Origin: Patescibacteria group bacterium
Lineage (GTDB): Bacteria > Patescibacteriota > Minisyncoccia > Minisyncoccales > JAHCRE01
DNA: 64,000 bases
Assembly (NCBI GenBank): GCA_020148055.1
Contig: JAHCRF010000001.1
Span: forward strand, 71,257-135,256
Direction: 5' to 3'
Under the pieces are notes generated by a model. That model was given only the letters and a program-made list of their open reading frames with translations. It had not been told where the DNA came from and did not search any database. Of the stretch, positions 2,914 to 54,010 are shown piece after piece. Made by a program: the position numbers and the translations under genes. Each line of letters starts with the position of its first letter. Positions within the stretch are counted from its first letter, which is position 1.

Positions 2914-4488
2914 ATGAAGGATTATTATCTTAAAGTTAACAAGGCTTCTGATCTTAAAGATAAACAAGAAAGAATAATTTTTCGTATTTTAGAGATTTTG
3001 CCTGGTTTTTTAAGCTGGGCAATTTTACTTTTAGTTATCATTTTATCTTGGCAAAAGCCGATTTTGGTAGCTGTCTTTATCATCTTTTTTGTAATTTTTT
3101 GGTTATTTAGAACAATCTACTTTTCATTTCATCTCCGGGCTGGCTATCAAAAAATGAAAGAACACGAAAATATTGATTGGCTAGCAAAGCTTAATCAACT
3201 GAGAGATAGAAACTGGAAAGATATCTATCATTTAATAGTCTTACCAATGTATAAAGAGCCTTTAGGAATTATTAAGGAAACCTTTAAAGCCTTAGAAAAT
3301 ACTGATTATCCTAAAGATAAAATGATTGTAGTTTTAGCTTGTGAGGAAAGAGCTGGAGAGGAAGCAAAAGAAACTGCCAGGATTATTGAAAAAGAATTTG
3401 CCAATAAATTTTTCAAATTTTTAATCACTTTTCATCCTCCAGATTTACCCGGAGAGATTGCTGCTAAAAGCTCAAATGAGACCTTTGGGGTAAAAAAAGC
3501 CAAGGAATTGATTATTGATCCATTTAAAATTCCTTATCAAAATATAATTTTTTCTTCTTTAGATGCCGATACTAAAATTTTTCCAAGATATTTTAGTTGT
3601 CTTACTTATCATTATTTAACCTCAAAAAACCCAACTAGAACTAGTTTTCAACCCATCCCTCTTTTTATTAATAATATCTGGCAGGCCCCTGGTATTTCTC
3701 GAGTTTTTTCCTTTTCCTCAACCTTTTGGCATACTATTAATCAGCAAAGGCCAGAAAAATTGATTACTTTCTCTTCCCATTCAATGAGTTTTTTAGCCTT
3801 AGTTGATACTGGATTCAAACAGACCAATGTAGTTTCTGATGACTCCAGAATTTTTTGGCAATGTTTTTTAAAATACAACGGAGACTATAAGGTTCAGCCT
3901 ATTTTTTATCCGGTTTCAATGGATGCTAATGTTTCTCGGAGTTTCTTTAGAACCTTAATCAATATCTACAAACAACAAAGAAGGTGGGCTTATGGAGTAG
4001 GGGATATCCCTTATTTTCTTTTTGGTTTTTTTAAAAATAAAAAAATCCCAATCTCAAAAAAATTTTCTTTAGGATTTGAGTTAATTGAAGGACACTTGTC
4101 TTGGGCTACTGCCTCGTTTTTAATTTTTCTATTAGGCTGGGTACCTTTAGTTTTAGGAGGAGAGGAGTTTAACCAGACCCTAATTTCTTATAATTTACCC
4201 TTGATAACCAGAAATATTTTAACTTTAGCAATGGTAGGCCTAACCGGATCTATCTATTTTAGTCTTAATTTACTCCCTCCTAAACCCCCTGAATATGGTC
4301 GGCTTAAATATTTATTTTTTGCTTTTCAATGGTTTTTAATTCCCTTAACAATGATATTTTTTGTTTCCCTACCAGCTTTAGATGCTCAGACGAGATTGAT
4401 GTTAGGGAAATATATGGGTTTTTGGCCGACTGAGAAAATTCGAAGGAATCTTACAAATTACGAATTTCCTCGAATTACGAATTCGTAA
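2914..4488 (+). CDS. membrane-embedded processive family-2 glycosyltransferase (cellulose/chitin-synthase-like)
   Basis: Start moved to ATG 2914, downstream of the tRNA. Has N- and C-terminal TM segments, VLPMYKEP, SSLDADT and QQRRW (QxxRW) motifs. Confidence 0.7.
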   Translation: MKDYYLKVNKASDLKDKQERIIFRILEILPGFLSWAILLLVIILSWQKPILVAVFIIFFVIFWLFRTIYFSFHLRAGYQKMKEHENIDWLAKLNQLRDRNWKDIYHLIVLPMYKEPLGIIKETFKALENTDYPKDKMIVVLACEERAGEEAKETARIIEKEFANKFFKFLITFHPPDLPGEIAAKSSNETFGVKKAKELIIDPFKIPYQNIIFSSLDADTKIFPRYFSCLTYHYLTSKNPTRTSFQPIPLFINNIWQAPGISRVFSFSSTFWHTINQQRPEKLITFSSHSMSFLALVDTGFKQTNVVSDDSRIFWQCFLKYNGDYKVQPIFYPVSMDANVSRSFFRTLINIYKQQRRWAYGVGDIPYFLFGFFKNKKIPISKKFSLGFELIEGHLSWATASFLIFLLGWVPLVLGGEEFNQTLISYNLPLITRNILTLAMVGLTGSIYFSLNLLPPKPPEYGRLKYLFFAFQWFLIPLTMIFFVSLPALDAQTRLMLGKYMGFWPTEKIRRNLTNYEFPRITNS

Positions 4489-4512
4489 TTAGTTTAGATT
4501 CGTAATTCGTAG
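4455..4512. repeat. 'cgaat/attcg' word palindrome; perfect 18-nt palindrome aattacgaattcgtaatt at 4473-4490
   Basis: Direct reading. Overlaps the last codons and stop of the GT gene (peptide ..YEFPRITNS*). Sits between convergent GT and recG, so it is a likely bidirectional terminator. Related to 52212-52278. Confidence 0.75.
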
Positions 4513-7060: not shown

Positions 7061-7084
7061 AAAAACCGGCGAAGCCGGTTTTTT
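7061..7084. terminator. bidirectional intrinsic terminator (aaaaa-ccggc-gaa-gccgg-tttttt)
   Basis: 5-bp GC stem flanked by an A-run and a T-run, between the tRNA-Ser pair (+) and comF (-). Confidence 0.7.
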
Positions 7085-7115
7085 ATTCCTAATTCTGGAT
7101 TCATAATTCTTAATT
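7081..7115. repeat. five-heptamer half-element (ttttatt cctaatt ctggatt cataatt cttaatt)
   Basis: Direct reading. Same unit family as the right arm at 37476-37510. Abuts the terminator hairpin. Confidence 0.7.
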
Positions 7116-7119
7116 TTAA

Positions 7120-7842
7120 TTATTCTCTTGCTACTACTACCCCCTGGATTTCTTTAGCTCCTGATTTTTTTAAAACTCGAGCAGCCTCTTCCATAGTCGC
7201 CCCACTTGTATAAATATCATCAACTAATAAAATTCTCTTCTCAAAAATCTTATTTTGGTTCTGGCAAGAAAATGTTTCTTTAACATTTTCTTTTCTTTCC
7301 CTTTCTGAAAGTTTGACCTGAGGTAAAGTTTCTTTTATTTTTATCAAGCAATTTAAAACTAAAGGAATCTCTAAAATTTTTGAAAGTTCTTTACTAATCT
7401 CAGTTGTCTGGTTAAATCCTCGCCATCTTAACCTCTTTTCATTTAGAGGAATAGGGATTAAAATAAAGTTGGAGAAATTTGGTTTGTTGTTAAGTAATTG
7501 AAAATGAGTTATTATTAAAGAAGCTAAAGGTTTTGCCAGCTCTTTTATAAAAGGATTATATTTAAATTTCTGGATTAATTCTTTTATCAATGGATTTTGG
7601 TAGGAGAGAGCAAAATAGAGAGTACTGAGAATTTTTGGTTGACATTCAGGACACTTCTCTCCTTCTAGTAATCTTTTTGGCTTCTTGCAAAGGCAATATT
7701 GATATTGAGAAATTTCCAGGATAGATTGACAATCTTCACAAAGATAGCTTCCCCCCCGGCCGCAACTAAAACAAGATCTAGGGAAAAGGATATCTAATAA
7801 AAATTTTTTAATTTTTTCCATCATATTTACAGTTCTTTCCAA
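7120..7842 (-). CDS. comF: ComF-family competence protein / phosphoribosyltransferase-fold
   Basis: N-terminal Cys-rich zinc ribbons (CFSCG...CEDC, CPEC) and a C-terminal PRTase motif LLVDDIYTSGATM. Confidence 0.75.
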   Translation of the reverse strand: MERTVNMMEKIKKFLLDILFPRSCFSCGRGGSYLCEDCQSILEISQYQYCLCKKPKRLLEGEKCPECQPKILSTLYFALSYQNPLIKELIQKFKYNPFIKELAKPLASLIITHFQLLNNKPNFSNFILIPIPLNEKRLRWRGFNQTTEISKELSKILEIPLVLNCLIKIKETLPQVKLSERERKENVKETFSCQNQNKIFEKRILLVDDIYTSGATMEEAARVLKKSGAKEIQGVVVARE

Positions 7843-9547: not shown

Positions 9548-10105
9548 ATGTCTCGATTAACTTTAATTATTATTTGTTTTTTCCTCATTTTATTAATAGG
9601 CCTTTTCTTAATCTGGCCAAAATATCAAAACTTGGGAGCTCTTAAACTTGAAATTGAAGGAAAGGAAATTGAATTACAATACTTGGAAGAATATTTTCAA
9701 AGGCTCGATCAGCTTTCCCAAGAGCTTAAAAAATATGAGGCTCAACTTTCAAAGATTGATTTTGCCCTTCCCTCTGATTCTTCTTTAACTTTGCTTTCTT
9801 TAATAAATTTCCTTCAAAAAGCGAGCTCCCAAAATGGTTTAGTTTTTAAAGAATTGGGATCGTTTTCAATAATCTTACCGAAACCACCAGCCGAAGCTTC
9901 TGGTCTTCAGGAATCTCAACTTTCTTCTAAAATCAAAGAGATCTATCTTGGCTTTGAAGTTGCTGGTTCTTATTCTGCTTTGAAAAATTTCCTTAATACC
10001 TTGGAAAAAAGTGCCAAACTTATCGAAGTAGAAGAGGTTTCTTTTTCTTTTGAAGAGGAGGAGATTTTTTCTTTTATTTTTAAAATAAAAACTCATTCTT
10101 ATTAA
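9548..10105 (+). CDS. pilO: PilO-like pilus assembly protein
   Basis: 185 aa, N-terminal TM plus coiled coil. Called on position after pilN. Confidence 0.6.
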   Translation: MSRLTLIIICFFLILLIGLFLIWPKYQNLGALKLEIEGKEIELQYLEEYFQRLDQLSQELKKYEAQLSKIDFALPSDSSLTLLSLINFLQKASSQNGLVFKELGSFSIILPKPPAEASGLQESQLSSKIKEIYLGFEVAGSYSALKNFLNTLEKSAKLIEVEEVSFSFEEEEIFSFIFKIKTHSY

Positions 10106-16161: not shown

Positions 16162-16962
16162 ATGGAGTTGGTTTCCTTTTTCTCTCTTTTTATTTTCCTT
16201 TTTGGATTAGCAGTAGGTAGTTTTTTAAATTCAATAATTCACCGCTTACATACCGGCGAAAGTTTTCTATTTACTCATTCCTATTGTCCTCATTGTAAGC
16301 ACAAATTAAGCTGGCAAGATTTAATTCCTATTTTGAGTTTTCTAATTTTAAAAGGAAAATGCCGATATTGTAAAAAAAAGGTGTCCTTGCAATATCCCTT
16401 GGTTGAGTCAGCAACTGGAATTTTATTTATTTTAACTACCCATTACACACTACTTACTATAAGCTACGAAAGTTTACTGTTTACTGTTTACTGTTTACTG
16501 TTAAGTTGTTTCTTAATAATAATTTTCGTTTACGATTTAAAACACTATATTATTCCGGATAAAATAATTTATCCTGCAATAGGCATTGCCTTTATCTATA
16601 ATATTCTTTATTCATACTTCATAATTCATAATTCCTATTTCCTTGTAAATAGTTTATTAGCAGCCTTTACTGGAGGCCTCTCTTTTCTTTTTATTTTTCT
16701 CCTTTCGGGTGGCAAATGGATGGGTTTTGGTGATGTTAAGTTAGTTTTCTTTATGGGTCTTTTTTTGAGTTTTCCAGATATTTTGGTTGCTCTGTTTTTA
16801 GCCTTTTTAGTTGGTGCTATAATAGGGATAGGGTTGATTTCGGCTGGTAAAAAAACTCTTAAGAGTGAAGTTCCTTTTGGCCCTTTTCTGGTGACAGGAG
16901 CCTTTATCGCTTTCTGTTTCGGAAATCAAATAGTAAATTGGTATTTAAAAATTTTAAGATGA
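16162..16962 (+). CDS. pilD: prepilin peptidase PilD (A24 family) with N-terminal Cys4 domain
   Basis: CPHC...CRYC, multiple TMs and the GFGDVKL catalytic Asp context. TATAAT lies 6 nt upstream of the ATG. Carries two heptamer arrays. Confidence 0.85.
   Translation: MELVSFFSLFIFLFGLAVGSFLNSIIHRLHTGESFLFTHSYCPHCKHKLSWQDLIPILSFLILKGKCRYCKKKVSLQYPLVESATGILFILTTHYTLLTISYESLLFTVYCLLLSCFLIIIFVYDLKHYIIPDKIIYPAIGIAFIYNILYSYFIIHNSYFLVNSLLAAFTGGLSFLFIFLLSGGKWMGFGDVKLVFFMGLFLSFPDILVALFLAFLVGAIIGIGLISAGKKTLKSEVPFGPFLVTGAFIAFCFGNQIVNWYLKILR
16472..16506. repeat. five-heptamer array (gtttact x4 + gttaagt) inside pilD
   Basis: Direct reading. Encodes ..LLFTVYCLLLSC... Confidence 0.8.
16607..16641. repeat. 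five-heptamer array (tttattc atacttc ataattc ataattc ctatttc) inside pilD
   Basis: Contains the 18-mer attcatacttcataattc, which is identical to part of the rpoB-rpoC spacer arm (30522-30556). Confidence 0.8.
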
Positions 16963-19708: not shown

Positions 19709-21225
19709 GATTTTAAAATGTAGGGTAAATTTCTTTTCCCTTTTGCCTTTTGATACTTTCTTAAAATCAAATCAATTTTTGATTTTTTTATTCTAAATTT
19801 CTTTTCAATTTCTTTTTTTGAAATTTTTAAATCCTCAATAGCAGATAAAACCGTGTCAATTTCCAAATAAAAGGCTCCGATTTCTCCTTCATCTGTCTGA
19901 CCTTTCCATAGTTCAGGAGAAGGAGCTCTTTTGAGAATTTCATCTGTAATTTCTCTAAAGAAATTGGCTATTTGATAAACTTGGATTTTATAAAGATTAT
20001 TTATCGGTTCAACTCCTGAAACTCTATCTCCACCGATTGTAAAATATCCCAACCTTTCTTCACTTTTATCTTCACTCCCAATAACAATAGCACGCTTGAC
20101 AGCTGATAAATCAAATAAAATCCCCATTCTTTCTCTTGCCATTAAATTTCCTTTTCTGATTTTTATGTTCCCACCTTTAAATTTTTTTAGAATTTTCCAG
20201 CTTAGATCAACCTGTTTATTTATTGGAATAGTAATTAAATTTTCTTTTGGCAATTTTAAATTTCTTGCCAATTTTTCAGCTAAAATTAGGCTTTCTTTTG
20301 AAGAAATTCCCAAGTAAGGCATTCTTAAAAAATAGACATTTTTTGGACCTAAAGCCTTAACTGCCAAAGTGGCAGCCAAGGCAGAGTCAATTCCTCCTGA
20401 TACTCCAATCACTGCTTTTTTGAAATGATATTTTTTAAAATAATTTCTTATCTCTTTAATTTTTTTCCCTGTAATCTCTCTGATTTTTTTCTGGGTAAAT
20501 CTTAAATGAGGAGGAATTTTTTCAAAATCAATGTAAGAAGCTCCTCTTGCTTCGTTCAAAAATCTCTCCTTCTTTAGAAAATAGGTTTTTCTTGGCATAT
20601 TTGGAGTAGTATATAATTTTTTTTCTTTAATATACTTTAGCACCTTTTCTGGCACCAAAGAAGTTAAATTTTTACCCTTCCTTATTCTTTCTCGAATTTT
20701 AGTAGCTGAAATCGGTATGTTTAAATTTACTTTTATTATCTTTTTAAAAGCTTTTTTTGATTTTTCTTTAAATTTTTTAGGAAGCTTTTTTAAATTAAAT
20801 TGGTGCCAAGATCTAGTAAAAACAATAAATTGAGCTAAATCTAAAATTTTTAAATCTCCTTTCCACTTCCCTTCAATAATTTCTCTTAAGGAATCTTCTC
20901 CAATTAACCAAAAAATTTGGCAGTTTCTCAACTTTTTTCTAAAAAATTTGAGTGTTTCAATAGTGAAACATTTTTTCTTTTTTCTTATCTCATAATCTGA
21001 AACTTCAAAATAAGGCCTTCTTTCAATTAAAAGCTTAGTCATCAAAAATCTATCTTTAGCTGAAGGCATTTTTTCTTTCTTCAAAGGAGGAACACCCGAA
21101 GGTAAAAAAATAATTTTTTCTAAATTAAGTTTCTTAAGGGCAGTTTCGGCTAAGATTAAATGGCCAAAATGGGGAGGATTGAGAGCTCCTCCTAATATCC
21201 CGATTTTTGAAATTTTTCTTTCCAT
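19705..21225 (-). CDS. fusion protein: nicotinate-nucleotide adenylyltransferase (NadD) + NH3-dependent NAD+ synthetase (NadE)
   Basis: N-terminal half has GILGGALNPPHFGHL and ISATKIRERI (NadD). C-terminal half has VIGVSGGIDSALAA (PP-loop NadE). Confidence 0.8.
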   Translation of the reverse strand: MERKISKIGILGGALNPPHFGHLILAETALKKLNLEKIIFLPSGVPPLKKEKMPSAKDRFLMTKLLIERRPYFEVSDYEIRKKKKCFTIETLKFFRKKLRNCQIFWLIGEDSLREIIEGKWKGDLKILDLAQFIVFTRSWHQFNLKKLPKKFKEKSKKAFKKIIKVNLNIPISATKIRERIRKGKNLTSLVPEKVLKYIKEKKLYTTPNMPRKTYFLKKERFLNEARGASYIDFEKIPPHLRFTQKKIREITGKKIKEIRNYFKKYHFKKAVIGVSGGIDSALAATLAVKALGPKNVYFLRMPYLGISSKESLILAEKLARNLKLPKENLITIPINKQVDLSWKILKKFKGGNIKIRKGNLMARERMGILFDLSAVKRAIVIGSEDKSEERLGYFTIGGDRVSGVEPINNLYKIQVYQIANFFREITDEILKRAPSPELWKGQTDEGEIGAFYLEIDTVLSAIEDLKISKKEIEKKFRIKKSKIDLILRKYQKAKGKRNLPYILKS

Positions 21226-24462: not shown

Positions 24463-24487
24463 TTAATTAATTCTTAATTTTTTGATG

Positions 24488-24526
24488 GTTCGGCTTTGCT
24501 CACGATTAATCCTGAGCCTGCCGAAC
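24488..24526 (+). other. GC-rich nested hairpin in the 5' leader (gttcggc..gctca-N10-tgagc..gccgaac)
   Basis: 7-bp and 5-bp stems read directly. Track ORF 24482 translates through it, but the likely start is 24542. Confidence 0.55.
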
Positions 24527-24541
24527 GGATTGATTTTTAAT

Positions 24542-27177: not shown

Positions 27178-30100
27178 ATGAAGTTTAAAGATTTTTCAAA
27201 ATCAAAAATTTCCCTACCCTTACCTTATTTACTCTCGATTCAAAGAGAAAGCTGGCAGAGATTTTGGGAAAGAGATTTAAAAGAACTCTTTTCAGAAATA
27301 TCGCCCATTCAAGATTATACCGGAAAGGAGTTAGAACTCTGGTTTTTAGACTATAAATTGGATGAGCCCAAATATAAAACTACCTTGGAAGCTAAGGAGA
27401 ATAATGATTCTTATGAAGCAGCCTTGCGGGCTAGAGTAAGATTAGTCAATCTCAAAACAAAAGAAATTAAAGAACAAGAAGTCTTTTTAACCGATTTCCC
27501 CTTAATGACCAAGAGAGGAACTTTTATTGTTAACGGGATAGAAAGAGTAGTTATTTCTCAGCTTATTCGTTCCCCCGGCGCCTTTTTTACTTCTCAGATA
27601 ATTAGAGGTGAAACTCATTTTGGAGCAAAAATTATTCCTAATCGGGGAGCTTGGCTTGAATTTGGAACTGAAGCCTCCGGTTTTATTGGAGTTAAGATTG
27701 ACCGAAAGAGAAAAGTAGCAGCTACTACTTTATTGAGAGCTTTCGGAATTGATCAAGATGAAAAAATTCTAGAGATCTTCCAAGATATTGATAACAATCC
27801 AGAAATTAACTATATTTCAGAGACAATAAAAAGAGACCCTACTAAAAATCAAGCCGAAGCCTTAATTGAAGTCTATCAGCATCTAAGACCAGGAGATTTA
27901 ACAACCGCTGAGACAGCTAGAGAGTTGATTGAAAACATGTTTTTTAATTTTGAAAGATATGATTTGTCAAAAGTAGGGAGATGGCGAATGTGGCAGAGAC
28001 TACCGGAATTGAAAAAATCCAAAATCCAAAAGGGGCCCACGAAAGTGGGAGGGCGGTCGGGACGCGAGGCCTTCCCGCGGAACGGGAGGCCCCGTCCTTG
28101 GGTGGGTTGGAGTCCAAAATCCAAAACTAAAAAGCCAAAGCTAGAAGAAGGAATCACCAGGTCAGATAGGGTTTTGCATCCCGAAGATATTGTGGCTGTT
28201 TTGAGAGAGATTATTAGATTAAATAATGACCCCGGGGGAAAACCCGATCAGATTGATCATTTGGGCAATCGGCGAGTAAGAACTTTAAATGAACTTTTAC
28301 AAAACCGATTAAGGGTAGGTTTAATGAGAATGGCCAGGATTATCAAAGACCGAATGGCTACTTTAGATATTTCCATCTTAACCCCGGTTCAATTGATTAA
28401 TTCCCGACCATTTATAGCGATAGTTAGGGAATTCTTTACCTCTTCTCAGCTTGCTCAGTTTATGGACAATGAGAATCCTCTTGCTGAATTAGAGCATAAA
28501 AGAAGACTATCAGCTACCGGACCAGGTGGTTTAACTCGAGAAAGAGCTGGGTTTGAGGTTAGAGATGTTCAACCATCCCATTATGGAAGGATTTGCCCTA
28601 TCCAAACTCCTGAAGGACCAAATGTTGGGTTAATTAATCATTTAGCTGGTTTTGCCCGAGTTAATCCTTATGGTTTTATTGAAACTCCTTATTTCAAGGT
28701 GAAAAATGGAAGGGTTACTTCAGAAATTTGTTATCTTAATGCCTATGAAGAAGAAAAGTATAATATTGCCCATGGAGGAGTACCAATCGATGAGAAAGGC
28801 AAAATTACCTCCAAAAAGGTTGAAGCTAGAGTAAAGGGTGAACCAGGAATAGTTGGTAGAGAAAAAGTTGATTTTTTCGACATCTCTCCTGCCCAATCAA
28901 TTTCTATCGCTACTTCTTGCATTCCTTTTTTACAAAATGATGATGCCAACCGAGCCTTAATGGGATCAAATATGCAAAGACAAGCTGTTCCTCTTCTCAG
29001 ACCAGGGGTTCCCCTAGTTATTACTGGAGCAGAAGAGAAGGTAGCTAGAGATTCTGGCCAGGAGATAATTGCCGAGGAAGAAGGGGTTGTTACCGAAGTC
29101 GATGCTAATCATATTAAAATTAGGGGTAAAAAGGGAGAAAAGAAATATCCTCTGCAAACTTTTATTCAGACCAATCAATTCACTTGTTTTCATCAAAGCC
29201 CCTTAGTTAAAAAAGGGAAGGTTGTTAAAAAAGGAGACATTTTAACTGATGGTGGAGGAATTTCTCAAGAACATTTAGCTTTAGGCCGAAATATTTTGGT
29301 TGCTTTTATGTCCTGGCGTGGAGGAACTTTTGAAGATGCAATTTTGATTTCTGAAAGATTGGTTAGAGATGATGCTTATACTTCAATTCATATTGAGGAT
29401 TTTAGTTGTGATGTTCGAGAAACCAAATTGGGACCGGAGATTACAACCTGTGATATTCCTAACGTTTCAGAAGAAAAATTGAGGAATTTAGATGAAGAAG
29501 GTTTAGTCAGAATTGGGGCTGAAGTTGGCCCAAATGATATCTTGGTTGGGAAGATTTCTCCAAAAGGAGAAGTTGATTTAACTGCTGAGGAAAGATTATT
29601 GAGAGCTATTTTTGGAGAGAAAGCTAGAGAAGTTAAAGATACCTCTTTATTAATGGAGCATGGTAAACAGGGGAGGGTAATTAATGTGAAGATTTTTTCT
29701 AGAGAATCGGGTCATAGACTTGACCCCGGAGTGATAAAAAGAATTGATGTTAAAGTAGCGGAGATTAGAAAAACTCAAGCCGGTGATAAATTAGCTGGTC
29801 GCCATGGGAATAAGGGAGTGATTTCTAAGGTTTTACCAATTGAAGATATGCCATTTTTAGAAGATGGAACTCCAGTCGATATTATTTTAAATCCTCTAAG
29901 CATTGCCTCGCGAATGAATATTGGTCAAGTTCTGGAAGCTCATTTAGGAAAAGCGGCCAAAAAATTGGGCTACATTGCTATTTCTCCGGCCTTAGCTGGA
30001 GTGACTGAGGAAGAGATTAAAGAAGAGCTTAGGAAGGCTGGATTACCAGAAGATGGAAAAGTCGCTCTTTATGATGGCCGAACCGGCCTACCTTTTTCCA

Positions 30101-30480
30101 AAAAAATTACTGTTGGCTATGTTTATATGATGAAATTAATTCATATGGTTACCGATAAAATCCACGCCAGATCAATTGGACCTTATTCTCTAATTACTCA
30201 ACAGCCCTTAGGAGGAAAGGCCCAATTTGGAGGTCAAAGATTCGGAGAAATGGAAGTTTGGGCTTTAGAAGGACATGGAGCAGCCCATAGTTTACAGGAA
30301 ATGTTAACTATTAAATCCGATGATGTCCAAGGTCGGGCAGCTGCTTATCAGGCCATCTTAAAAGGAGAGCCAATCAGAAATCCTAATGTTCCCGCGTCTT
30401 TAAATTTACTAATCAATGAATTAAAGGCTCTTGGGCTAAATGTTGAAATAAAAGAAAACCCCAAAGAACAAGAATCCTGA
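27178..30480 (+). CDS. rpoB: DNA-directed RNA polymerase beta subunit
   Basis: 1100 aa with canonical beta motifs (GRHGNKGV, FGEMEVWALE). Carries a 123-nt repeat insert at 28014-28136. Confidence 0.97.
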   Translation: MKFKDFSKSKISLPLPYLLSIQRESWQRFWERDLKELFSEISPIQDYTGKELELWFLDYKLDEPKYKTTLEAKENNDSYEAALRARVRLVNLKTKEIKEQEVFLTDFPLMTKRGTFIVNGIERVVISQLIRSPGAFFTSQIIRGETHFGAKIIPNRGAWLEFGTEASGFIGVKIDRKRKVAATTLLRAFGIDQDEKILEIFQDIDNNPEINYISETIKRDPTKNQAEALIEVYQHLRPGDLTTAETARELIENMFFNFERYDLSKVGRWRMWQRLPELKKSKIQKGPTKVGGRSGREAFPRNGRPRPWVGWSPKSKTKKPKLEEGITRSDRVLHPEDIVAVLREIIRLNNDPGGKPDQIDHLGNRRVRTLNELLQNRLRVGLMRMARIIKDRMATLDISILTPVQLINSRPFIAIVREFFTSSQLAQFMDNENPLAELEHKRRLSATGPGGLTRERAGFEVRDVQPSHYGRICPIQTPEGPNVGLINHLAGFARVNPYGFIETPYFKVKNGRVTSEICYLNAYEEEKYNIAHGGVPIDEKGKITSKKVEARVKGEPGIVGREKVDFFDISPAQSISIATSCIPFLQNDDANRALMGSNMQRQAVPLLRPGVPLVITGAEEKVARDSGQEIIAEEEGVVTEVDANHIKIRGKKGEKKYPLQTFIQTNQFTCFHQSPLVKKGKVVKKGDILTDGGGISQEHLALGRNILVAFMSWRGGTFEDAILISERLVRDDAYTSIHIEDFSCDVRETKLGPEITTCDIPNVSEEKLRNLDEEGLVRIGAEVGPNDILVGKISPKGEVDLTAEERLLRAIFGEKAREVKDTSLLMEHGKQGRVINVKIFSRESGHRLDPGVIKRIDVKVAEIRKTQAGDKLAGRHGNKGVISKVLPIEDMPFLEDGTPVDIILNPLSIASRMNIGQVLEAHLGKAAKKLGYIAISPALAGVTEEEIKEELRKAGLPEDGKVALYDGRTGLPFSKKITVGYVYMMKLIHMVTDKIHARSIGPYSLITQQPLGGKAQFGGQRFGEMEVWALEGHGAAHSLQEMLTIKSDDVQGRAAAYQAILKGEPIRNPNVPASLNLLINELKALGLNVEIKENPKEQES
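28014..28136 (+). repeat. nested insert in rpoB: 'aaaatcc' heptamer array interrupted by element A
   Basis: aaaatcc aaaatcc aaaa[84-nt A]aaaatcc aaaacta aaaagcc. The total of 123 nt equals 41 codons. Confidence 0.8.
28032..28115 (+). repeat. GC-rich hairpin element family A, copy 2 (in frame in rpoB, sense)
   Basis: 84 nt, about 87% identical to 1463-1547. Encodes ..GPTKVGGRSGREAFPRNGRPRPWVGWSP... Confidence 0.9.
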
Positions 30481-30556
30481 ATTATGAATTAGGAATCAAG
30501 AATAAAAAATAAGAAATAAAAATTCATAATTCATACTTCATAATTCGTAATTCTGA
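30476..30556. repeat. composite palindrome in the rpoB-rpoC spacer: 5x7 'NNNgaat' array, 11-nt core, 5x7 'attcNNN' array
   Basis: cctgaat tatgaat taggaat caagaat aaaaaat / attcata attcata cttcata attcgta attctga. The left arm overlaps the rpoB stop codon. Confidence 0.8.
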
Positions 30557-30560: not shown

Positions 30561-33500
30561 ATGAGAGTAGCTGATCTTAAATCAATAAAAATTCGCTTAG
30601 CCTCACCAGAAGAAATTTTATCTTGGTCTCATGGCGAGATTACTAAACCTGAAACCATCAATTATCGAACTCAAAGAGCAGAAAAGGACGGTCTTTTTTG
30701 TGAAAGAATTTTCGGGCCAACTAAAGATTATCAATGCTATTGCGGTAAATATAAAAGAATTCGTTATAAAGGGATAACTTGCGATCGCTGTGGGGTAGAA
30801 GTGACAAAATCTTCGGTCAGACGAGAGAGGATGGGTCATATCAAATTGGCCTCACCGGTTTCTCATATTTGGTTCTTAAGAGGAGTACCGTCGCGAATGG
30901 GAATAATCTTAAATGTTTCTTTACCCAAATTGGAAAGGGTAATTTATTTTGCTGCTTACATTATCACAGAAGTTATAGAGGAGGCTAAGAAAAGAGTTTT
31001 AAAAGAGATTGAGAAAGAATACAGGTCAAAGGTAAAAACTCAAAAAGCTTCCCCAGCCCCACCCGCCACCCATCAAAGGAAAAAAACATCTAAGGCAAAA
31101 ACAAAAAGTAAAAATAAAATAAAACCCCAAGACCTGAAAGTAGCCAGAGATAAAGCTAAAGAGGAAGTGTTAGCTTTGAAACCTTTGAAAATTCTTTCTG
31201 AGGTGGAATATCACAATCTTTCTTTTAAATATGGAGAGGTTTTTACAGCGGGAACAGGAGCAGAAACTCTAAGGAAAATTTTTGAGAAGATAGATTTTAA
31301 AAAAGAAATTACCAAATTAAAAAAAGAAATTGAAAAAGCCTCACCGGTGAGTCGAAGAAAAATTTTAAGGAGATTGAAACTCTTCCAGTCGATGTCTAAC
31401 GCAAAACTGAGACCAGAGTGGATGTTTCTGAATGTTTTGCCGATTTTACCCCCAGATTTAAGACCAATGGTTCAGTTAGATGGTGGTCGTTATGCTTCCT
31501 CTGATTTAAATGATCTTTATAGAAGAGTAATTAATCGGAACAACCGTTTGAAATATCTTTTAGAAATTGCAGCTCCTGAAGTTATTGTTAGAAATGAGAA
31601 AAGAATGTTGCAGGAAGCAGTTGATGCTCTGATCGATAATGGAATGAGAAAGGGAGTAATTACCAGGGCGACCACTGGAGGAAGAAGGCTTTTGAAATCT
31701 TTAGCTGATATGTTGAAAGGAAAACAAGGGAGATTCAGGCAAAATCTTTTAGGTAAAAGAGTTGATTATTCGGGCAGATCGGTGATTGTCGTTGGACCAA
31801 AATTAAGACTTCATCAGTGTGGTCTTCCTAAAAAGATGGCCTTGGAATTATTTAAACCTTTTGTTATTAAAAGAATTTTAGATAAAGAATTGGCTTACAA
31901 TGTAAGGGCAGCTTCGAGGTTGATTGAGCAGGAAACCGAGGAAGTTTGGGCAATCTTAGAAGAAGTGGTTAAAGATAAATTGGTTTTATTAAATCGGGCT
32001 CCAACCTTACATCGATTAGGAATCCAGGCTTTCCAACTAATATTAATTGAGGGAGAAGCAATTCAAGTCCATCCTTTAGTTTGTAAAGCCTTTAATGCCG
32101 ATTTTGATGGGGATCAAATGGCTATCCATTTACCTTTATCAACTGAGGCCCAAAAAGAGGCTAAAGAAATAATGTTATCTACCTTAAATCTTTTGAAACC
32201 AGCCACTGGTATTCCAATTGTAACTCCTACTCAAGATATTATCCTTGGCTGCTATTTTTTAACCAAAATTAAAGAGAAAGCTAAAGGGGAAGGGAAGATC
32301 TTTGGAAATTTCCAAGAGACCGTTTTAGCTTATGAGTTTGGAGAGGTAGACTTAAAAGCCGGAATCAAGGTTAAAATAAAGAATTCGGAATTTTTAGAGA
32401 CTTCGGTTGGGCGAATTATTTTTAATGAGACTTTACCCGCAGGCTTCCGGTTTATTAATGAAGTGATAAATTCAAAGAAATTAGAAAAAGTGATAAGTGA
32501 AATTATTGAAAATTACGGAATAGAAAGATCGGTTGCTACCCTGGATAAAATTAAAGATTTGGGATTTGAATATGCCACTATTTCAGGTTTATCCTGGGGA
32601 ATGGATGATTTAGATATTCCTAAAGAAAAAGAAGAATTAATTAAAGGGGCAGAAACAGAAATAGAGATGATCGAAGAACACTTCAAAAAAGGGTTACTGA
32701 CTGAGGAAGAAAAATATCTAAAGACAATTGAAATTTGGCAAAAAATAAAATCAAAAATTGAAAAAATTGTTCCGAAGACATTACCATCTGAGAGTTCAGC
32801 ATTTTCAATTGTTGATTCCGGAGCGAAAGGCTCCTGGATCCAACCTGTGCAGATGTGTGGAATGAAGGGTTTAGTGATTAATCCAATGGGACAGATTATT
32901 GAACTTCCAATCAAAAGTTCTTATAAAGAAGGATTTAATGTTTTGGAATATTTCATTTCTACCCATGGAGCAAGAAAAGGAACAGTTGATACGGCTCTAC
33001 GTACCTCTACTGCTGGCTACTTAACCAGAAGACTTATTGATGTCGCCCATGAGGCAGTAATAACTGAGGAAGATTGTCATGACGAGAAAGGGATTGAAAT
33101 ATCCAGAGGGGATGCTGAAGAAATTGGCCAGAATTTTATCTTCAAGATTTTAGGGAGAGTAGTTATAGAAGATGTCAGAAATCCCGCCAGAGGCGAGGCT
33201 CGCCAAGGGCGGCAAAAAGCAAAAAGCAAAATTATCAAAAAAGGAGAAATAATTGATTGGAAAGCGGCTGAGGAAATAATTAAAGCTGGGGTTGAAAAAG
33301 TTCGAGTTCGTTCTCCCTTAACTTGTAAGTCAACCAGAGGAATTTGCCAGAAATGCTATGGCTGGGATTTAGGCTCAAATCAATTAGTTAAATTAGGGGA
33401 AGCGATGGGGATTGTTGCTGCCCAGGCGATTGGCGAGCCGGGAACTCAATTAACGATGAGAACTTTTCATACCGGTGGCGTGGCTGGAGGAGAAGATATA

Positions 33501-36402: not shown

Positions 36403-37401
36403 ATGGCAAGACAGAAGAAAGAAAAAAAACTTGAAAAAAAGGATTTAGAAGGGGCAATAACCGAAATTAAACAGCGCTTCGGTGAAGGGTCAATCATGAA
36501 ATTAAAAGAAACCCGGCCAGTTGATGTTGATGTAATTCCTACTGGTTCAATTTCTTTAAATCTGGCTTTAGGAGTAGAAGGAATACCTCGGGGTAGAGTG
36601 ATTGAAGTTTTCGGACCAGAGGGAGGAGGAAAAACAACTTTGGCGCTTCATATTTTAGCTGAGGTTCAAAAAAGAGGAGGGGTGGCAGCTTTTGTTGATG
36701 CCGAGCATGCTTTAGATCCTGATTGGGCAAAAAGAATTGGAGTAAACGTCGATGATCTTTTAATTTCTCAACCCGATTCTGGAGAACAGGCATTAGAGAT
36801 CGTTGAGACTTTAGTTAGATCGGGCCAAATTGATGCTATAGTGATCGATTCAGTTGCTGCTTTGACCCCCCAAGCTGAAATTGAAGGCGAGATGGGAGAA
36901 TTTCAGATTGGCCTTCAGGCTCGTTTGATGTCGCAATGTTTACGAAAATTGTCGGGAATTGTTTCTAAAACTAAGACCTCGGTTATCTTTTTGAATCAGA
37001 CCAGGATGAAAATTGGTATTCGCTTTGGAAATCCTGAGACCACTCCTGGGGGTTTAGCTTTAAAATTTTATTCCTCGGTGAGAATTGCTTTAAGAAGAAT
37101 TGCTCAGATAAAACACGGGGAGGAAATTATCGGCAGTCGAATAAAGGCTAAAATTGTCAAAAATAAAGTAGCCGCTCCTTTTAAAACAGCTGAATTTGAT
37201 ATTTATTATAACGAAGGAATTTCTTATCTGGCCGACATTTTAAATACTGGAATTAAGTTAGAAGTTATTAAGAAAGCCGGAAGCTGGTTGAAATATGAGA
37301 ATATAAAATTAGGACAGGGCTTTGAGGCTAGTAAAAAATTCTTGAAAGAGAATCCAAAAATACTAAAGAAAGTAAAAGAAGCGATTGTAAACCAAGTTTA
37401 A
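36403..37401 (+). CDS. recA: recombinase RecA
   Basis: [12 protein letters not shown], the L1/L2 loop region and NQTRMKIG. Confidence 0.97.
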
Positions 37402-37510
37402 GAATCACGAATCACGAATTATGAATTATGAATAGAATAAAAACGGTAATTCAAAAACTGCCCCCAAGGGCAGTTTTTTATTCTTGATTCCTAATTCCTT
37501 ATTCTATTTA
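37402..37510. repeat. composite palindrome: 5x7 array (gaatcac gaatcac gaattat gaattat gaataga), terminator core, inverted 5x7 array (ttttatt cttgatt cctaatt ccttatt ctattta)
   Basis: Direct reading. Lies between convergent recA and rpsR. The right arm overlaps the rpsR stop. Confidence 0.8.
37453..37479. terminator. bidirectional intrinsic terminator core (aaaaa-ctgccc-ccaa-gggcag-tttttt)
   Basis: 6-bp GC stem, 4-nt loop, flanking A-run and T-run. Confidence 0.8.
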
Positions 37511-47327: not shown

Positions 47328-48803
47328 TTAATTCCTAGTCAACATTTTTTCCTTTCTCAATTTCCTATGATAAGAAATCGCAAATCGGTGAGCCTCGTCA
47401 CGTAATTGCAAAATTAAATTGAAAATTTCTCTTGGTAAGTTTTTCAGAAAAATCGGCCTTTTTCGATTCTCAATGTATAGTTTATTTCCCTTTTTAGCTA
47501 AACTTGCAACTATTATCTTTTTTTTGCTTTTTGCTTTTTGCTTTTTGATTTTGAGGGCAGCGTTAAGTTGCGTGATTCCCCCATCAATTAAGACCAAATC
47601 TGGCCAGCCCCATTCAGGATGTTGCAATCTCCGAGATAAAATTTCTTTTATCATTGCTATATCACTCGGTCTGCCAGAAATCTTGATTTTAAATTTTCGA
47701 TAAAATTCTTTAGCTGCCTGGCCTCTAATAAATGTCACCATGGCACCTACAGCTAATTTTCCAGAAATATTTGAAATATCATAGGCTTCAATTCTTTTTA
47801 TCTTCTTTTCGGTTTTTAAAATTTTCTTTAAAATTTTTTGAATTTGGGGCCAGTCCAAAATTTTTGCCTGCTTGCCAGGATCTGTGACTTCAAGCGCTGG
47901 CAGGCGGGCATTAAGGATTACCTTTTCTAAGGAAAATATTTTATCCCTAATTTTGGCTGCTTTTTCAAAATTTTGCAAATCAGCTGCTCTTTTCATTTCT
48001 TTTTTTAAATTTCTTAAGACCTGATTTCTTTTTCCTTGGAGAATTTTGAGAAGATTTCTGGCGTTCCTTTGACACTCCTTTTTAATTTTTTCTCTTAGCC
48101 CAGGAATTTGAGAACTAAGTTTTGCTCCCCCCCTAGGGTCGCCGTAAGGCGACTCCTTCAGGGATTTTAATAGGCAAGGAGCTGGACAACGACCCAATTG
48201 ATACCAGAGACAAGGTCTTTTTGGCAAGATTTTGCAGGTTCTGTAAGGGAGAGCTTTCCTTAAAATTTTTAGAGTTTGTTTTAAAGCTTTACCATCAACA
48301 AACGGACCAATAAACTGGAATTTAGAATTATGAATTATGAATGATGAATTATAAGGTTTTTTCTTTTTTGTTCTTGATTCTTGATTCCTGACTCTTGATT
48401 CCCAAAATGGTTGGTGGGTCAAGAATACTCTTGGAAAGCCCTCTTTAGCTATTCCAACATAAAAATAATTTTTGTCATCTCGCCAAACAACATTATATTT
48501 TGGTAGAAATTTTTTTATTAAATTTGCCTCCAGAATTAAAGCCTCGATTTCTGAATCAGCTTTGATAAAACCTATTTTTTTGGTTTTATCTAGAAAAATA
48601 CTTTCTTTGAAACCGGGTTGTTGAAAATGATTTTTAACTCGCTTTCGAATATTTGAAGCTTTGCCAATGTATAAAATTTTCCTTTCTTTGAAGCAATAAA
48701 CCCCCGGCTTTTTAGGAAGTTTTTTAACCCCCTCCTTTTTTAAAAATTTAAATTTTTTCACGTTCGGTAATCCGATTTTAACTTGAAATTGATAATTTTT
48801 CAA
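47328..48803 (-). CDS. uvrC: excinuclease ABC subunit C
   Basis: GIY-YIG N-terminus (PGVYCF..ILYIGKA..), UvrBC domain, RNase H-like endonuclease domain and a C-terminal HhH region. Interrupted in frame by four repeat inserts. Confidence 0.9.
   Translation of the reverse strand: MKNYQFQVKIGLPNVKKFKFLKKEGVKKLPKKPGVYCFKERKILYIGKASNIRKRVKNHFQQPGFKESIFLDKTKKIGFIKADSEIEALILEANLIKKFLPKYNVVWRDDKNYFYVGIAKEGFPRVFLTHQPFWESRVRNQESRTKKKKPYNSSFIIHNSKFQFIGPFVDGKALKQTLKILRKALPYRTCKILPKRPCLWYQLGRCPAPCLLKSLKESPYGDPRGGAKLSSQIPGLREKIKKECQRNARNLLKILQGKRNQVLRNLKKEMKRAADLQNFEKAAKIRDKIFSLEKVILNARLPALEVTDPGKQAKILDWPQIQKILKKILKTEKKIKRIEAYDISNISGKLAVGAMVTFIRGQAAKEFYRKFKIKISGRPSDIAMIKEILSRRLQHPEWGWPDLVLIDGGITQLNAALKIKKQKAKSKKKIIVASLAKKGNKLYIENRKRPIFLKNLPREIFNLILQLRDEAHRFAISYHRKLRKEKMLTRN
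47531..47565. repeat. five-heptamer array (tttttgc x3, tttttga, ttttgag) inside uvrC
   Basis: Direct reading. Encodes ..KIKKQKAKSKKKI... Reverse complement of the rpoC array family. Confidence 0.85.
47866..47909 (+). repeat. 13-bp GC hairpin insert in uvrC (gcctgcttgccag-N18-ctggcaggcgggc)
   Basis: Direct reading. Two of the 13 pairs are G:T, which is only tolerated if the plus strand folds. Shares caggcgggca with family B. Confidence 0.65.
48125..48163 (+). repeat. element family E, copy 2 (gtcgcc-gtaa-ggcgac hairpin at 48138-48153), in frame in uvrC
   Basis: Perfect 6-bp stem with a GNRA-type loop. Encodes ..KESPYGDPRGGAK... Related to 5620-5649. Confidence 0.7.
48315..48401. repeat. complete 87-nt composite palindrome ('gaat/attc' family) inserted in frame in uvrC
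   Basis: ctggaat ttagaat tatgaat tatgaat gatgaat, then a 17-nt core, then ttttgtt cttgatt cttgatt cctgact cttgatt. 35+17+35 = 87 nt = 29 codons (..ESRVRNQESRTKKKKPYNSSFIIHNSKFQ..). Confidence 0.85.
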
Positions 48804-48864
48804 CCAGATTTGTTAGATAGAGGGTTTGTTGAAATTCTTTGAAATTTTGGGTATAATAACTTTT

Positions 48865-49698
48865 ATGAAAGAAAAAGTTATTAAAATCCGTGGAGCCAAA
48901 GTTCACAATTTAAAAAATATTAATCTTGATATCCCAAAAAACAAACTGGTAGTGATTACTGGGATTTCAGGTTCAGGAAAATCATCTTTGGCCTTTGATA
49001 CATTATATGCTGAAGGACAAAGAAGATATGTTGAGAGTTTATCTGCTTATGCAAGGCAATTTTTAGGAGTGATGGATAAACCAGAGGTTGACAAAATTGA
49101 AGGAATTTCACCTGCAATTTCAATTGACCAAAGAAAAGCAGCTCACAATCCACGCTCCACTGTTGGAACCATTACTGAAATTGCAGATTACTTAAGATTA
49201 TTATTCGCTAGGATAGGGAAGCCCCATTGTCCAAAATGTAAAAAAACAGTTAGCCGTCAGACCATCGATCAAATTACTGATCAGGTTTTGAAATTGCCAA
49301 AAAGAACAGAAATTTCGATTTTGGGTCCAGTTGTTAGAGGTCGAAAAGGAGAGCATCGGGGAATTTTAGAAGAGATTCAAAGATCAGGATTTATCCGAGT
49401 GAGAATTGATGGGATTTTACACCGAATTGAAGACTACAACCCACCCACCATGTCCTCCCACTCGCTTCGCGAGCGGGCCCCTACTCTAGGGCTGAAGTTA
49501 GACCGAAAGAAAAAACACAATATTGAGGTTGTTGTTGATAGATTAATAATTGATAAAGACTTGGATAGATCAAGGTTGGTTGATTCTCTGGAAACAGGCC
49601 TAAAGTTGGGAAAAGGAATAGTAATAGTAACTCAAAAAGCTTCCCCAGCCCCACCCGCCACCCATCAAAGGAAAAAAACATCTAAGGCAAAAATCTAA
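48865..49698 (+). CDS. uvrA: excinuclease ABC subunit A, N-terminal fragment; the frame ends at TAA inside or just after repeat element C
   Basis: [47 protein letters not shown]... TATAAT (48852-48857) lies 7 nt upstream of the ATG. Confidence 0.85.
49435..49492 (+). repeat. GC-rich insert D in uvrA (hairpin cccactcgc-ttc-gcgagcggg at 49457-49477)
   Basis: GC island encoding ..[19 protein letters not shown].. between conserved RIDG and [13 protein letters not shown]. Shares gcgggcccct with the reverse complement of element A copy 1. Confidence 0.65.
49629..49693 (+). repeat. element family C, copy 2; coincides with the frame break in uvrA
   Basis: Identical over 65 nt to 31037-31101. Confidence 0.95.
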
Positions 49699-51799
49699 TG
49701 ACTTAATATTCAGCGAGTATTTTGCCTGCGAGGAATGTGGGATTTCTCTTCCAGAATTAGAGCCTCGGCTTTTTTCATTTAATTCTCCTTATGGGGCCTG
49801 TTCAGCCTGCCAGGGGCTTGGAGAAAAATTAGAAATCGATCCAAAATCAGTTTTACCCAATCCAAATTTATCGATTTCTGAAGGAGCAATTTTTCCCTGG
49901 GCTCATGCCTCTCATAAAGTTGGCAGGCAGGGTTATTTTTGGTGGCAGTTCACCCACTTGGCAGAAAAGTATAACTTCTCCTTAGATGTCCCGGTTAAAG
50001 AACTTCCCAAAAAGATCATTGATTTAATTTTATATGGTAATGGCCAATTTGAGGGAGTAGTTCCCAATTTGGAAAGGAGATATCACGAAACTGATTCAGA
50101 ATATACCCGTAAGGAAATTGAGCAGTATATGATAAAAAAGAGATGTGAAAAATGTCAGGGAAAAAGATTAAGGCCTGAAGCCTTGGCAGTGACTGTGATA
50201 AAAAAATCAATAAATGAAATCGTTGAAATTTCAATAGAAAAAGAAAAAAGATTTTTCGAGAATTTACTACTAAATCCTAAATCCTATAACCTAAATCCTA
50301 ATGACTACAAAATTGCCCAACCAATTGTTAAGGAAATCATTAAGCGATTACAATTTCTAATTGATGTTGGTTTAGATTATTTAACCTTAGATCGGAAGAC
50401 AGAAACTTTATCGGCTGGGGAAGAGCAGAGAATAAGATTGGCTACTCAGTTAGGTTCTCAATTAACCGGAGTTTTATACATTTTGGATGAACCTTCAATT
50501 GGTCTTCATGCTAGAGATCAGGGTAGGCTCATCGAAACCTTAAATAAGTTAAGGGATTTGGGCAATACCGTTATTGTTGTTGAACATGATCCTCAGACAA
50601 TCATGGCTGCTGACTGGGTGATCGATATAGGGCCAGGAGCGGGGAAACACGGTGGCAAAATTATATTTAAGGGAACACCAAAAGAATTACTGAGATCAAA
50701 GACACTTACTGGAGATTATTTAGCTGGAAGAAAGAAAGTTGAGATAAAAGCAACCAGCAACAAGCAACCTGCCTCGCCGACAGGCGGGCAAGCAACCAAG
50801 AATAATTATCTAATAATAAAGAAAGCGGCTGAGCACAATCTCAAAAATATTGATGTTAAAATTCCTTTGGGAAAATTTGTCTGCATTACTGGAGTTTCGG
50901 GTTCGGGCAAAAGTTCTCTAATGAATGATATTTTAGCTAAAGCCCTGATGAGGAAATTTTACAAAGCCAAAGAGGAACCGGGAGAATTTAAAGAATTAAT
51001 TGGAACAGAATTTTTGGATAAAGTGGTTTTAGTGGATCAGTCTCCAATTGGCCGAACCCCCAGATCAAATCCGGCAACTTATACCGGAGTTTTTTCTTAT
51101 ATCAGAGATCTTTTTTCAAAAACCAGAGAGGCCAGAATTAGGGGGTATCGGCCAGGACGTTTCAGTTTTAATGTTAAGGGAGGAAGATGTGAAGTATGTC
51201 AAGGTCAGGGTCAAATCAAAATCGAGATGTACTTTTTGCCTGATATTTATATTGAGTGCCAGGAATGTAAGGGGAAAAGGTTCAACAAAGAAACCTTGGC
51301 TATTGAATATAAAGGAAAGAATATTGCTGAGGTTTTAGAAATGACAGTTGAAGAAGCCCTAAAATTTTTCATAAATATTCCCGGTATCTATCATAAATTA
51401 AAAACTTTGTATGATGTTGGTTTAGGCTATATTCAATTGGGCCAGCCAGCCCCTTCTTTGTCTGGAGGGGAGGCCCAGAGAGTGAAATTAGCTACTGAAC
51501 TTTCTAAAAGGGCTACGGGAAAGACTTTATATATTTTAGATGAACCAACCACTGGTTTGCATCCCGATGATATTAAAAAATTAGTTTGGGTTTTGAGAAA
51601 TCTGGTAGATAAAGGAAATACGGTTTTATTAACTGAACATAACATCGATATCATCCGCAATTCAGATTGGATAATAGATTTAGGACCGGAAGGTGGAGAT
51701 GAAGGCGGCGATATTATTGCAATAGGTACTCCATTTGAAATTACAAAAAACAAAAAAAGTTATACCGGACACTATTTAAAACAAGTTTTTAAATCTTGA
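49631..51799 (+). CDS. uvrA: excinuclease ABC subunit A, remainder of the gene in the +1 frame (open from 49631; UvrA homology resumes about 49700)
   Basis: [41 protein letters not shown]... and a second ABC module, [10 protein letters not shown]...[12 protein letters not shown]...[12 protein letters not shown]. The track only lists it from 49958. Confidence 0.85.
50271..50305. repeat. five-heptamer array (taaatcc taaatcc tataacc taaatcc taatgac) inside uvrA
   Basis: Direct reading. Encodes ..[15 protein letters not shown]... Confidence 0.85.
50750..50807 (+). repeat. element family B, copy 2, in frame in uvrA
   Basis: gcaaccagcaacaagcaacctgcctcgccgacaggcgggcaagcaaccaagaataatt. Encodes [17 protein letters not shown]. 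Confidence 0.9.
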
Positions 51800-51919: not shown

Positions 51920-52210
51920 ATGAAAATAAAACCCTTATCTAATCACATTCTTATTGAGCCAATGAGGCAAGAGGAGAAAACTAAAACCGGAATTTTACTT
52001 CCGGAAACAGCTGAGAAGGAAAAACCAGAGCAAGGAAAAGTAATTGCTGTAGGGCCAGGAAGAAAAACGGATTCAGGTAAAATCATTCCTTTGGAAGTAA
52101 AAAAGGGGGATATTATCCTCTTTACTAAATACGGACCAACAGAAATCAAAATTAATGGTAAAGAATATTTAATTGCTAAGGAAGAAGATATCCTGGCAAT
52201 ACTTGAATAA
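51920..52210 (+). CDS. groES: co-chaperonin GroES
   Basis: 96 aa. [37 protein letters not shown]. Confidence 0.95.
   Translation: [96 protein letters not shown]

Positions 52211-54010
<1,800 letters not shown>

Follow-up and report, generated by a model that had tools for sequence, protein, structure and literature searches.

The 64,000-nt stretch of DNA analysed here (the window; contig JAHCRF010000001.1, Patescibacteria group bacterium) is a genome fragment of 35% GC. Its rpoB gene, encoding the β subunit of RNA polymerase, is the host of the feature under study, an 84-nt element of 67% GC, called element A, that lies within an array of A-rich heptamers (Table 1). Across the site the translated protein reads ...LPELKKSKIQK-GPTKVGGRSGREAFPRNGRPRPWVGWSP-KSKTKKPKLEE..., and the sequence and positions that a first-pass annotation of this DNA had given for the whole feature (28014-28136) proved exact. 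TRF detects both halves of the array, at 28014-28031 and 28116-28143. All the β-subunit Pfam domains are present in 120 rpoB homologues; the closest are proteins of 'Patescibacteria group bacterium' and Candidatus Nealsonbacteria, the two best (Patescibacteria proteins) being 88-91% identical and those of named Nealsonbacteria about 75%.

Table 1. Features discussed in the text, in window coordinates (O, outer module; C, core hairpin; ORF, open reading frame; L numbers, loci of relatives).
Feature	Position	Strand	Remarks
rpoB (RNA polymerase β), 1100 aa, host gene	27178-30480	+	ORF list and translation; intact
5' heptamer part, AAAATCC AAAATCC AAAA	28014-28031	+	Encodes part of KKSKIQK; homologous to array-only alleles of L011 and L013
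Element A, whole	28032-28115	+	
Element A, O, 5' half: GGGGCCC, hairpin 1 (CCCAC GAAA GTGGG), AGGGCGG	28032-28056	+	Family alignment, hairpin survey
Element A, nested core hairpin C, 42 nt, 14 codons: TCGGGACGCGAGGCC..GGCCCCGTCCT	28057-28098	+	
Element A, O, 3' half (G-tract tail): TGGGTGGGTTGGAGTCC	28099-28115	+	
3' heptamer part, AAAATCC AAAACTA AAAAGCC (to 28136) and degenerate AAAGCTA	28116-28143	+	
Second O+C copy of element A, 85 nt	1463-1547	+	Antisense, in frame, in the C-terminal tail of tsaD (ORF 1426-2694, minus strand)
Outer-only (O) member	49432-49481	-	Antisense, in frame, in the N-terminal part of uvrA; region unaligned to solved UvrA
rpoC short GC hairpin CGCCAGAGGCGAGGCTCGCCAAGGGCGGC, abutting (GCAAAAA)n	33181-33231	+	Same type as the rpoB-loop hairpin of L009 and L010
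recG 21-nt GC hairpin within a (GCAACNA)n array	5393-5440	-	In frame; read PASPAGG
uvrA copy of the recG array and hairpin	50749-50800	+	92% identical over 48 nt, about 66 nt with flanks; recG-native flank included
Inverted heptamer pairs	2693-2780, 4452-4511, 7078-7124, 16591-16642, 30464-30553, 37399-37504, 48315-48401, 52210-52279		

In the alignment of the 120 homologues the site falls in a hypervariable segment bounded by RWRMWQRLPEL and EITxxDRVL, which under a fixed delimitation ranges from 13 to 84 aa (median 24, 119 homologues) and whose minimal form is LPEL-TKKA-EITV. This loop takes the place of about 6 residues of E. coli β, between 406 and 413. An AlphaFold model of residues 141-470 gives residues 285-323 a predicted local distance difference test (pLDDT) score below 50 and no secondary structure. 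The insertion position can thus be classed as surface and tolerant, being a variable loop that is absent from E. coli β and predicted to be disordered, and we read 28014-28143 as encoding a hypervariable, probably disordered surface loop of the β subunit in a Nealsonbacteria-like bacterium. In several relatives the loop contains peptides that are translated heptamer arrays (KSKIQNPKSK, KSEIRNP, KFKIQNS), and such a hypervariable, heptamer-built loop in rpoB is newly described here.

The DNA of the rpoB site was compared in eight relatives. L011 and L013 carry array-only alleles at the same site, that of L011 reading AAAAAATCC AAAATCC AAAACCC GAAATCC AAACC.... In the closest relatives, L009 and L010, the same array is broken after TCC by a different GC hairpin, CGCCCCGAAGGGGCGAGGCTCGC...GCGGC, which in L010 holds 30 extra nested nt; the 3' array of the window aligns with AAAATCC AAAATCC AAAACTT of L010 and has one unit more. 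L014 has an (AAAATTC)n array broken by another hairpin together with a diverged member of the element A family in opposite orientation, and the loops of L016 and L017 hold further unrelated inserts. The array is therefore old, since relatives carry array-only or differently interrupted alleles, and it has the marks of a microsatellite, with head-to-tail units whose number and sequence vary among the window, L009, L010, L011 and L013. These alleles establish that the array pre-existed and that independent insertions entered one loop, which has been struck many times across relatives. They support the view that the array predates element A at this site, as the first-pass annotation had proposed in letting the element enter an existing array, and element A in the window looks like a recent, lineage-specific arrival.

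The sequence covered by the family and array surveys amounted to the 64 kb of the source plus some 150 kb from relatives. In the outer module O, GGGGCCC is followed by a hairpin, then by GGGAGG and a G-tract tail finishing in G(G/T)AGTC(C/T), and the tail motif GG.T[TC]G[GT]AGTC is conserved in at least 10 copies. Measured to GAGTC, copies are 42-50 nt long when they hold the outer module only and 83-87 nt when they hold outer module and core, with one more when the terminal pyrimidine is counted. Because outer-only and core-only copies exist, element A is a nested composite, in which an outer module of about 42 nt surrounds the 42-nt core hairpin C, and this nested O+C architecture is newly described.

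The tsaD gene displays the modularity of the family directly. Its copy in the window is about 85-92% identical to the rpoB element, with the 42-nt core set between ..GGTGG and TGGG.. of the outer module, and L018 tsaD has the outer module alone at the site where the window has outer module and core. The site is empty (TGG GAG CAG ATC) in L020, the nearest relative, and, with 3 exceptions, in the 70 aligned homologues listed. It lies past the solved-structure alignment, and the 85-nt copy gives a net gain of exactly 27 codons because the conserved Trp codon provides the last two nt of the element consensus. Two distant lineages (57% TsaD identity) thus carry copies at the same tsaD codon, orientation and frame (L018 4420-4462; window 1463-1547), which points to site preference or to lateral exchange of the 3' end of the gene. 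TsaD of the window is 422 aa long compared with about 335 in solved homologues; its gene also contains three period-7 arrays (1825-1863, 1935-1966, 2406-2439), and the protein has a 12-aa N-terminal insert.

Regular-expression searches revealed further copies lacking the core, including those in uvrA and in intergenic DNA of the source scaffold, and core-only copies were found in a LigT-like ORF (L001, L003) and in dinB (L004). Pattern scans placed the central hairpin in seven metagenome contigs and in a single Nealsonbacteria genome. The scan of a genome collection for the core hairpin gave a single, core-only locus (CP179888.1, Nealsonbacteria), so the family is narrow, although the source genome itself was not among the hits; two viral-contig scans gave no match to the core and tail motifs. 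Read-through is in frame at the coding copies, which lie in rpoB, tsaD and uvrA of the window and in secA, dinB, the LigT-like ORF, tsaD and rpoB of relatives, and all of them are open. Both sense copies (rpoB, secA) read GREAFPxxGRPRP, antisense copies read RTGPPxxREGLAS or ..PPSR..RAP at 6 of 7 sites, and all six frames of the element are stop-free. With the 34-aa tsaD insert as query, an exhaustive HMMER search gave a single protein, repetitive and irrelevant, and the element peptide is thus not a conserved protein motif. A protein search with both frames joined into 56 aa gave no candidate with words in common. Family members probably behave as selfish or near-neutral DNA.

These data bear on the possibility that array and element reached rpoB jointly, in a single templated patch of about 123 nt whose source was another locus. 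Patches with host-native flanks do move, as seen below for a 65-nt rpoC/uvrA segment and for the array plus hairpin of recG and uvrA. However, relatives without element A have (AAAATCC)n at precisely this position of rpoB, the 3' units can be aligned with units of L010, which likewise lacks the element, and the tsaD and rpoB copies have no flanks in common. The suggestion of the first-pass annotation that the two parts might have arrived together is therefore not supported, and we regard a joint patch as improbable.

The same annotation had offered another model, in which element A entered a 35-nt array of five heptamers with a duplication of AAAA, adding 88 nt, and selection kept only the combination. 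Its arithmetic is right (35 + 88 = 123 nt, with remainders of 2 and 1 for the parts), and AAAA does stand on both sides of the element; moreover, the natural GC/AT boundaries in L009 give 41 + 34 nt, each out of frame, and shifts in heptamer copy number could in principle offset frame shifts. Yet this is one parse among three, the 123 nt being divisible as 84+39, 81+42 or 88+35. When the GC element alone (84 nt, 28 codons) is removed, rpoB stays open (ELKKSKIQKKSKTKKPKLEEGIT). Removal of 81 nt, with the terminal TCC counted as the TCC of the interrupted heptamer, also keeps it open (ELKKSKIQNPKSKTKKPKLEEGIT); this parse gives the relative's KKSKIQNPKSK and differs from the real array-only allele of L011 by 2 mismatches in 33 nt. 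In contrast, removal of 88 nt leads to a premature stop (ELKKSKIQNPKLKSQS, ...KLKSQS) and a truncated essential protein, so an ancestor without these 88 nt would not have been viable. Both parts are therefore in frame by themselves, the element with 28 or 27 codons and the array with 13 or 14, and there is nothing to compensate.

As to the duplication, no more than a single A is common to the flanks of the family (6 copies with O+C, about 7 with O only and 3 with the core only), and none of about 14 other family copies shows a target-site duplication. AAAA flanks are found only at rpoB, where AAAA is the array itself, and they are expected there anyway because AAAA recurs every 7 nt. Both the target duplication and the claim that only the composite preserves the frame are thus artefacts of boundary choice, and the model that combines them is highly improbable. 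Since the idea of frame compensation fails, no new selective principle is needed. The notion that heptamer phase is kept across the element (84 = 12 x 7) was also rejected, the flanking units being 4 nt out of phase.

We then considered whether the element has a structure. Hairpin 1 keeps its pairing in all of 8 copies, among which the sequence and length of its stem vary. For the core hairpin, pairing holds in 98.4% of cells and double compensatory changes are seen at 4 pairs, which 1 of 500 shuffles equalled, with the caveat that a pattern fixing part of the sequence retrieved most core copies. Each element has 4-7 tracts of three or more G, and the O tail, with at least 4 G3 tracts, constitutes a canonical quadruplex motif. 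Whole-element RNA folds gave z-scores of only -1.2 to -2.4. Thermodynamics alone is thus not convincing, and the structural case is made by the compensatory changes, which could also be explained by quasi-palindrome template-switch correction rather than by selection. A search of Rfam over 27980-28170 at permissive thresholds returned only chance hits (E of at least 0.3, far below gathering scores).

Such a structure could mean that the element is never translated, being cut from the mRNA or bypassed by the ribosome, and there are precedents in the GC-rich 'byp' elements of yeast mitochondria and the gap of T4 gene 60. The strong conserved secondary structure and the high GC content within an AT-rich genome fit this idea. 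Against it, every coding copy is stop-free and net in frame, with a preferred frame for each orientation, the geometry of take-off and landing codons does not match, and there is no Rfam family match; we give it almost no credence. Bypass between CAA codons was tried as a specific case and rejected, because resumption after the downstream CAA meets a stop.

Heptamer arrays are tenfold enriched in the window: 34 period-7 arrays were counted compared with 3.35 expected from 20 second-order Markov simulations, other periods being near expectation, and about half of them lie inside ORFs. Since the 7-nt unit is not a multiple of 3, the encoded peptide has a period of 7 aa per 3 units and slippage by a single unit shifts the frame; the arrays are potential frameshift hot spots. 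Inverted array pairs, (GAATNAN)n followed by (NTNATTC)n, are found at gene ends and in spacers, where they form long AT-rich palindromes that may be terminators or processing sites; the pair between rpoB and rpoC begins within the last rpoB codons. The rpoB loop of L017 (10460-10560) contains a coding inverted array pair, (GAAGTAG..)/(CTTCAAA..), with an architecture like that of the intergenic palindromic arrays.

The heptamer arrays might be the true targets of GC hairpins, either through a hairpin-recognising enzyme of the HUH type, such as a repetitive extragenic palindrome (REP)-associated tyrosine transposase (RAYT), or as slippage-prone DNA that attracts template switching. We looked at 61 non-tRNA GC islands in 215 kb (the window plus 14 non-redundant loci), with adjacency defined as within 12 nt: 11 of them adjoined period-7 arrays compared with 2.2 expected by random placement (0 of 5000 permutations), a fivefold excess, and in the window alone the numbers were 4 of 17 versus 0.72 (P=0.007). 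The excess came mostly from short CGCC-loop-GGCGAGGC hairpins, which sit in the arrays of recG, uvrA, rpoC and, in L009 and L010, rpoB; three different GC elements break arrays in the rpoB loop, and a relative has a RAYT-like gene. The adjacency that the first-pass annotation had noticed at 33184-33247 was confirmed, the GC hairpin abutting (GCAAAAA)2.9 in rpoC, and the hairpin (33181-33231) is missing from rpoC of L010, the nearest relative, with a net difference of 12 codons. For recG, L020 has the array only and the window has 7 codons more.

Several observations stand on the other side. About 12 copies of the A/O family have no array flanks, and there is no array near most copies of that family. 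The array and hairpin of uvrA are not an independent case, being a copy of those in recG (the shared sequence at 50749-50800 is partly native to recG in L020). The RAYT-like gene has different flanking palindromes, none of which is in the window. Permissive protein loops confound the association as well: arrays and GC elements alike are restricted to tolerant loops, which alone is enough to yield co-occurrence. The general proposal that arrays are the true targets is thus doubtful. Of the original suggestion, the co-occurrence of GC elements and heptamer arrays stands in part; preferred targeting may apply to the short hairpins and has no support in the case of element A. Because the A family mostly sits outside arrays, the adjacency in rpoB most likely reflects the permissive loop. 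Elsewhere in the window, a 96-nt GC-rich island in the primase gene dnaG (63223-63318) splits the DNAG_N Pfam match in two; it may be what the earlier annotation had called element B.

Duplicated patches bear on how these sequences move. rpoC (31037-31101) and uvrA (49629-49693) have a 65-nt segment in common, with 100% identity. It breaks the uvrA frame, the gene (48826-51799) being split there into two ORFs, and removal of the segment yields a 'repaired' UvrA whose alignment to solved UvrA is contiguous. The cause would be a recent templated insertion that shifted the frame and left a pseudogene, or else a problem of assembly. The frameshift means that out-of-frame insertions occur where they are tolerable, which agrees with selection, and not mechanism, enforcing the frame in rpoB. 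The segment shared by recG and uvrA suggests patch copying between unrelated genes, and insertion junctions overlap by 2-3 nt (TCC in rpoB, GG in tsaD). Patches moving with host flanks and junction overlap point to templated copying, and the conserved structure, the lack of target duplication and the RAYT-like gene in a relative point to hairpin-specific single-strand transposition. That gene (L016 5600-6700) encodes a Y1 transposase (NCBIfam REP_Tyr_transpos, E=5e-7, below the curated cut-off) and is flanked by at least 3 GGACATCGCATGTCC palindromes, which are not A/O/C modules. The window contains neither the GGACATCGCATGTCC palindrome nor a transposase resembling the L016 Y1 protein. As a mobiliser the gene was rejected, since its palindromes differ and none is in the window.

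Other insertions were recorded in passing. Presence or absence differences of 15-48 nt separate the window from its nearest relative (24487-24534, 20534-20581 and 31058-31072; 9960-9995 and 16701-16736 in L010), among them a hairpin of 48 nt that lies upstream of the ORF at 24482 and, in L010, a GC element of 36 nt immediately before the start of rpoB. Two relatives carry a recA intein (Pfam Intein_splicing and LAGLIDADG_3; L015 12942-15311, L017 18759-21122).

Altogether, we consider it likely that one rpoB loop holds two unrelated kinds of insertion, an old heptamer microsatellite and a recent copy of element A. The A-rich microsatellite (AAAATCC)n, translated as KSKIQNP-type repeats, is common to related lineages, and a copy of the dispersed GC-rich element would have been placed inside it recently and in this lineage only. 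Members of the family would land in either orientation in unrelated housekeeping genes and in intergenic DNA, by microhomology-guided templated copying or hairpin-dependent single-strand transposition; the copies would remain in the mRNA and be translated as a Pro/Gly/Arg-rich coil, and only in-frame outcomes in tolerant loops would survive. The rpoB copy, adding 84 nt or net 81 nt, is in frame alone, and the array was in frame beforehand.

Some points weigh against this conclusion. An element-less allele of this same lineage was not found, and the ancestral state is deduced from cousins, since even the nearest rpoB has no more than 88-91% identity. The boundaries can be placed only to within about 3 nt, and copy lengths are not always multiples of 3; the net in-frame length is thus an outcome of selection or of junction trimming or overlap and not an intrinsic property, for which reason frame arithmetic could not carry the conclusion first drawn from it. 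Translation of the element is deduced from open frames only, and no mobilising enzyme was identified in the window. Finally, the association of GC islands with period-7 arrays is significant, so that some array targeting, at least by short hairpins, may be real.

A bolder scheme would have Nealsonbacteria-like genomes of the Candidate Phyla Radiation (CPR) run an undescribed system of loop remodelling. Heptamer microsatellites would serve as landing pads, and microhomology-guided templated synthesis would copy nesting GC hairpin/G-quadruplex modules, at times along with host flanks; arrays and modules would keep being written into the surface loops of the essential proteins RpoB, RpoC, SecA, TsaD, RecG and UvrA, changes in heptamer units (±1 mod 3) correcting the frame. 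We offer this as a speculation that is unlikely to be correct.

We compared the insertions with known systems, none of which they match fully. Heptanucleotide repeats are known from cyanobacteria as short tandemly repeated repetitive (STRR) sequences. The tandem repeats of Borgs are intragenic, evolve fast and create disordered regions (PMC9879509), and a heptamer period is described as over-represented in some bacteria (PMC4692102). The quickly evolving repeats described here likewise add low-complexity, disordered protein segments; as points of difference, their unit of 7 nt is not a multiple of 3 and they sit in essential genes such as rpoB and rpoC. Element A resembles miniature inverted-repeat transposable elements in being small, non-autonomous, multi-copy and sometimes intragenic, but it lacks target-site duplication and terminal inverted repeats (5' GGGGCCC.. 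and 3' ..GGAGTCC are not complementary, pairing being internal, in hairpin 1 and the core), and no related insertion sequence was found in the sequence examined. REPs, the units of bacterial interspersed mosaic elements, are extragenic with a conserved 5' GTAG. Element A shares with the REP/RAYT system a GC-rich imperfect palindrome, compensatory stem changes and the lack of target duplication, and L016 has a RAYT-like gene with its own flanking palindromes; however, most copies of element A are intragenic, in open frames, the window has no RAYT and the palindromes of L016 are another sequence. GC clusters of yeast mitochondria, including byps, are GC-rich mobile hairpins in an AT-rich genome, also found inside protein genes. 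Byps are organellar and skipped by the ribosome, so that frame is not required, whereas all coding copies of element A are open and in frame.

The closest parallel is offered by the Rickettsia palindromic elements (RPEs), short dispersed hairpin repeats that lie in frame in unrelated housekeeping genes of a reduced genome and are translated as added peptide segments, with the frame conserved per family (PMC10969869). Three RPE traits are found here, the element A family being multi-copy and in frame in unrelated genes, with a consistent frame, at tolerant positions. It differs in occurring in Patescibacteria, in its size (42-88 nt, compared with about 100-150 bp for RPEs), in being GC-rich in a 35% GC genome, and in its modular, nested make-up with a G-tract tail, often embedded in heptamer microsatellites. 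Because phylum, size, composition and modular architecture differ, we do not claim membership; the likeness is one of behaviour. This RPE-like in-frame dispersal in CPR housekeeping genes is newly described, and a full-text literature search found no account of heptamer arrays or of in-frame GC elements in CPR/Patescibacteria. Apart from RPEs we know of few clear cases of repeats colonising housekeeping proteins in frame.

An essential gene of an ultra-small CPR genome thus tolerates heavy insertion, in a loop whose length ranges between 13 and 84 residues in close relatives and which is made of heptamer microsatellites and GC-rich selfish repeats. Such inserts enlarge and diversify marker proteins, rpoB among them, that are used in CPR phylogeny and binning. 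The occurrence of a second, unrelated RPE-like case, again in a reduced genome, suggests that colonisation of this kind is permitted repeatedly when genomes shrink and selection is weak.

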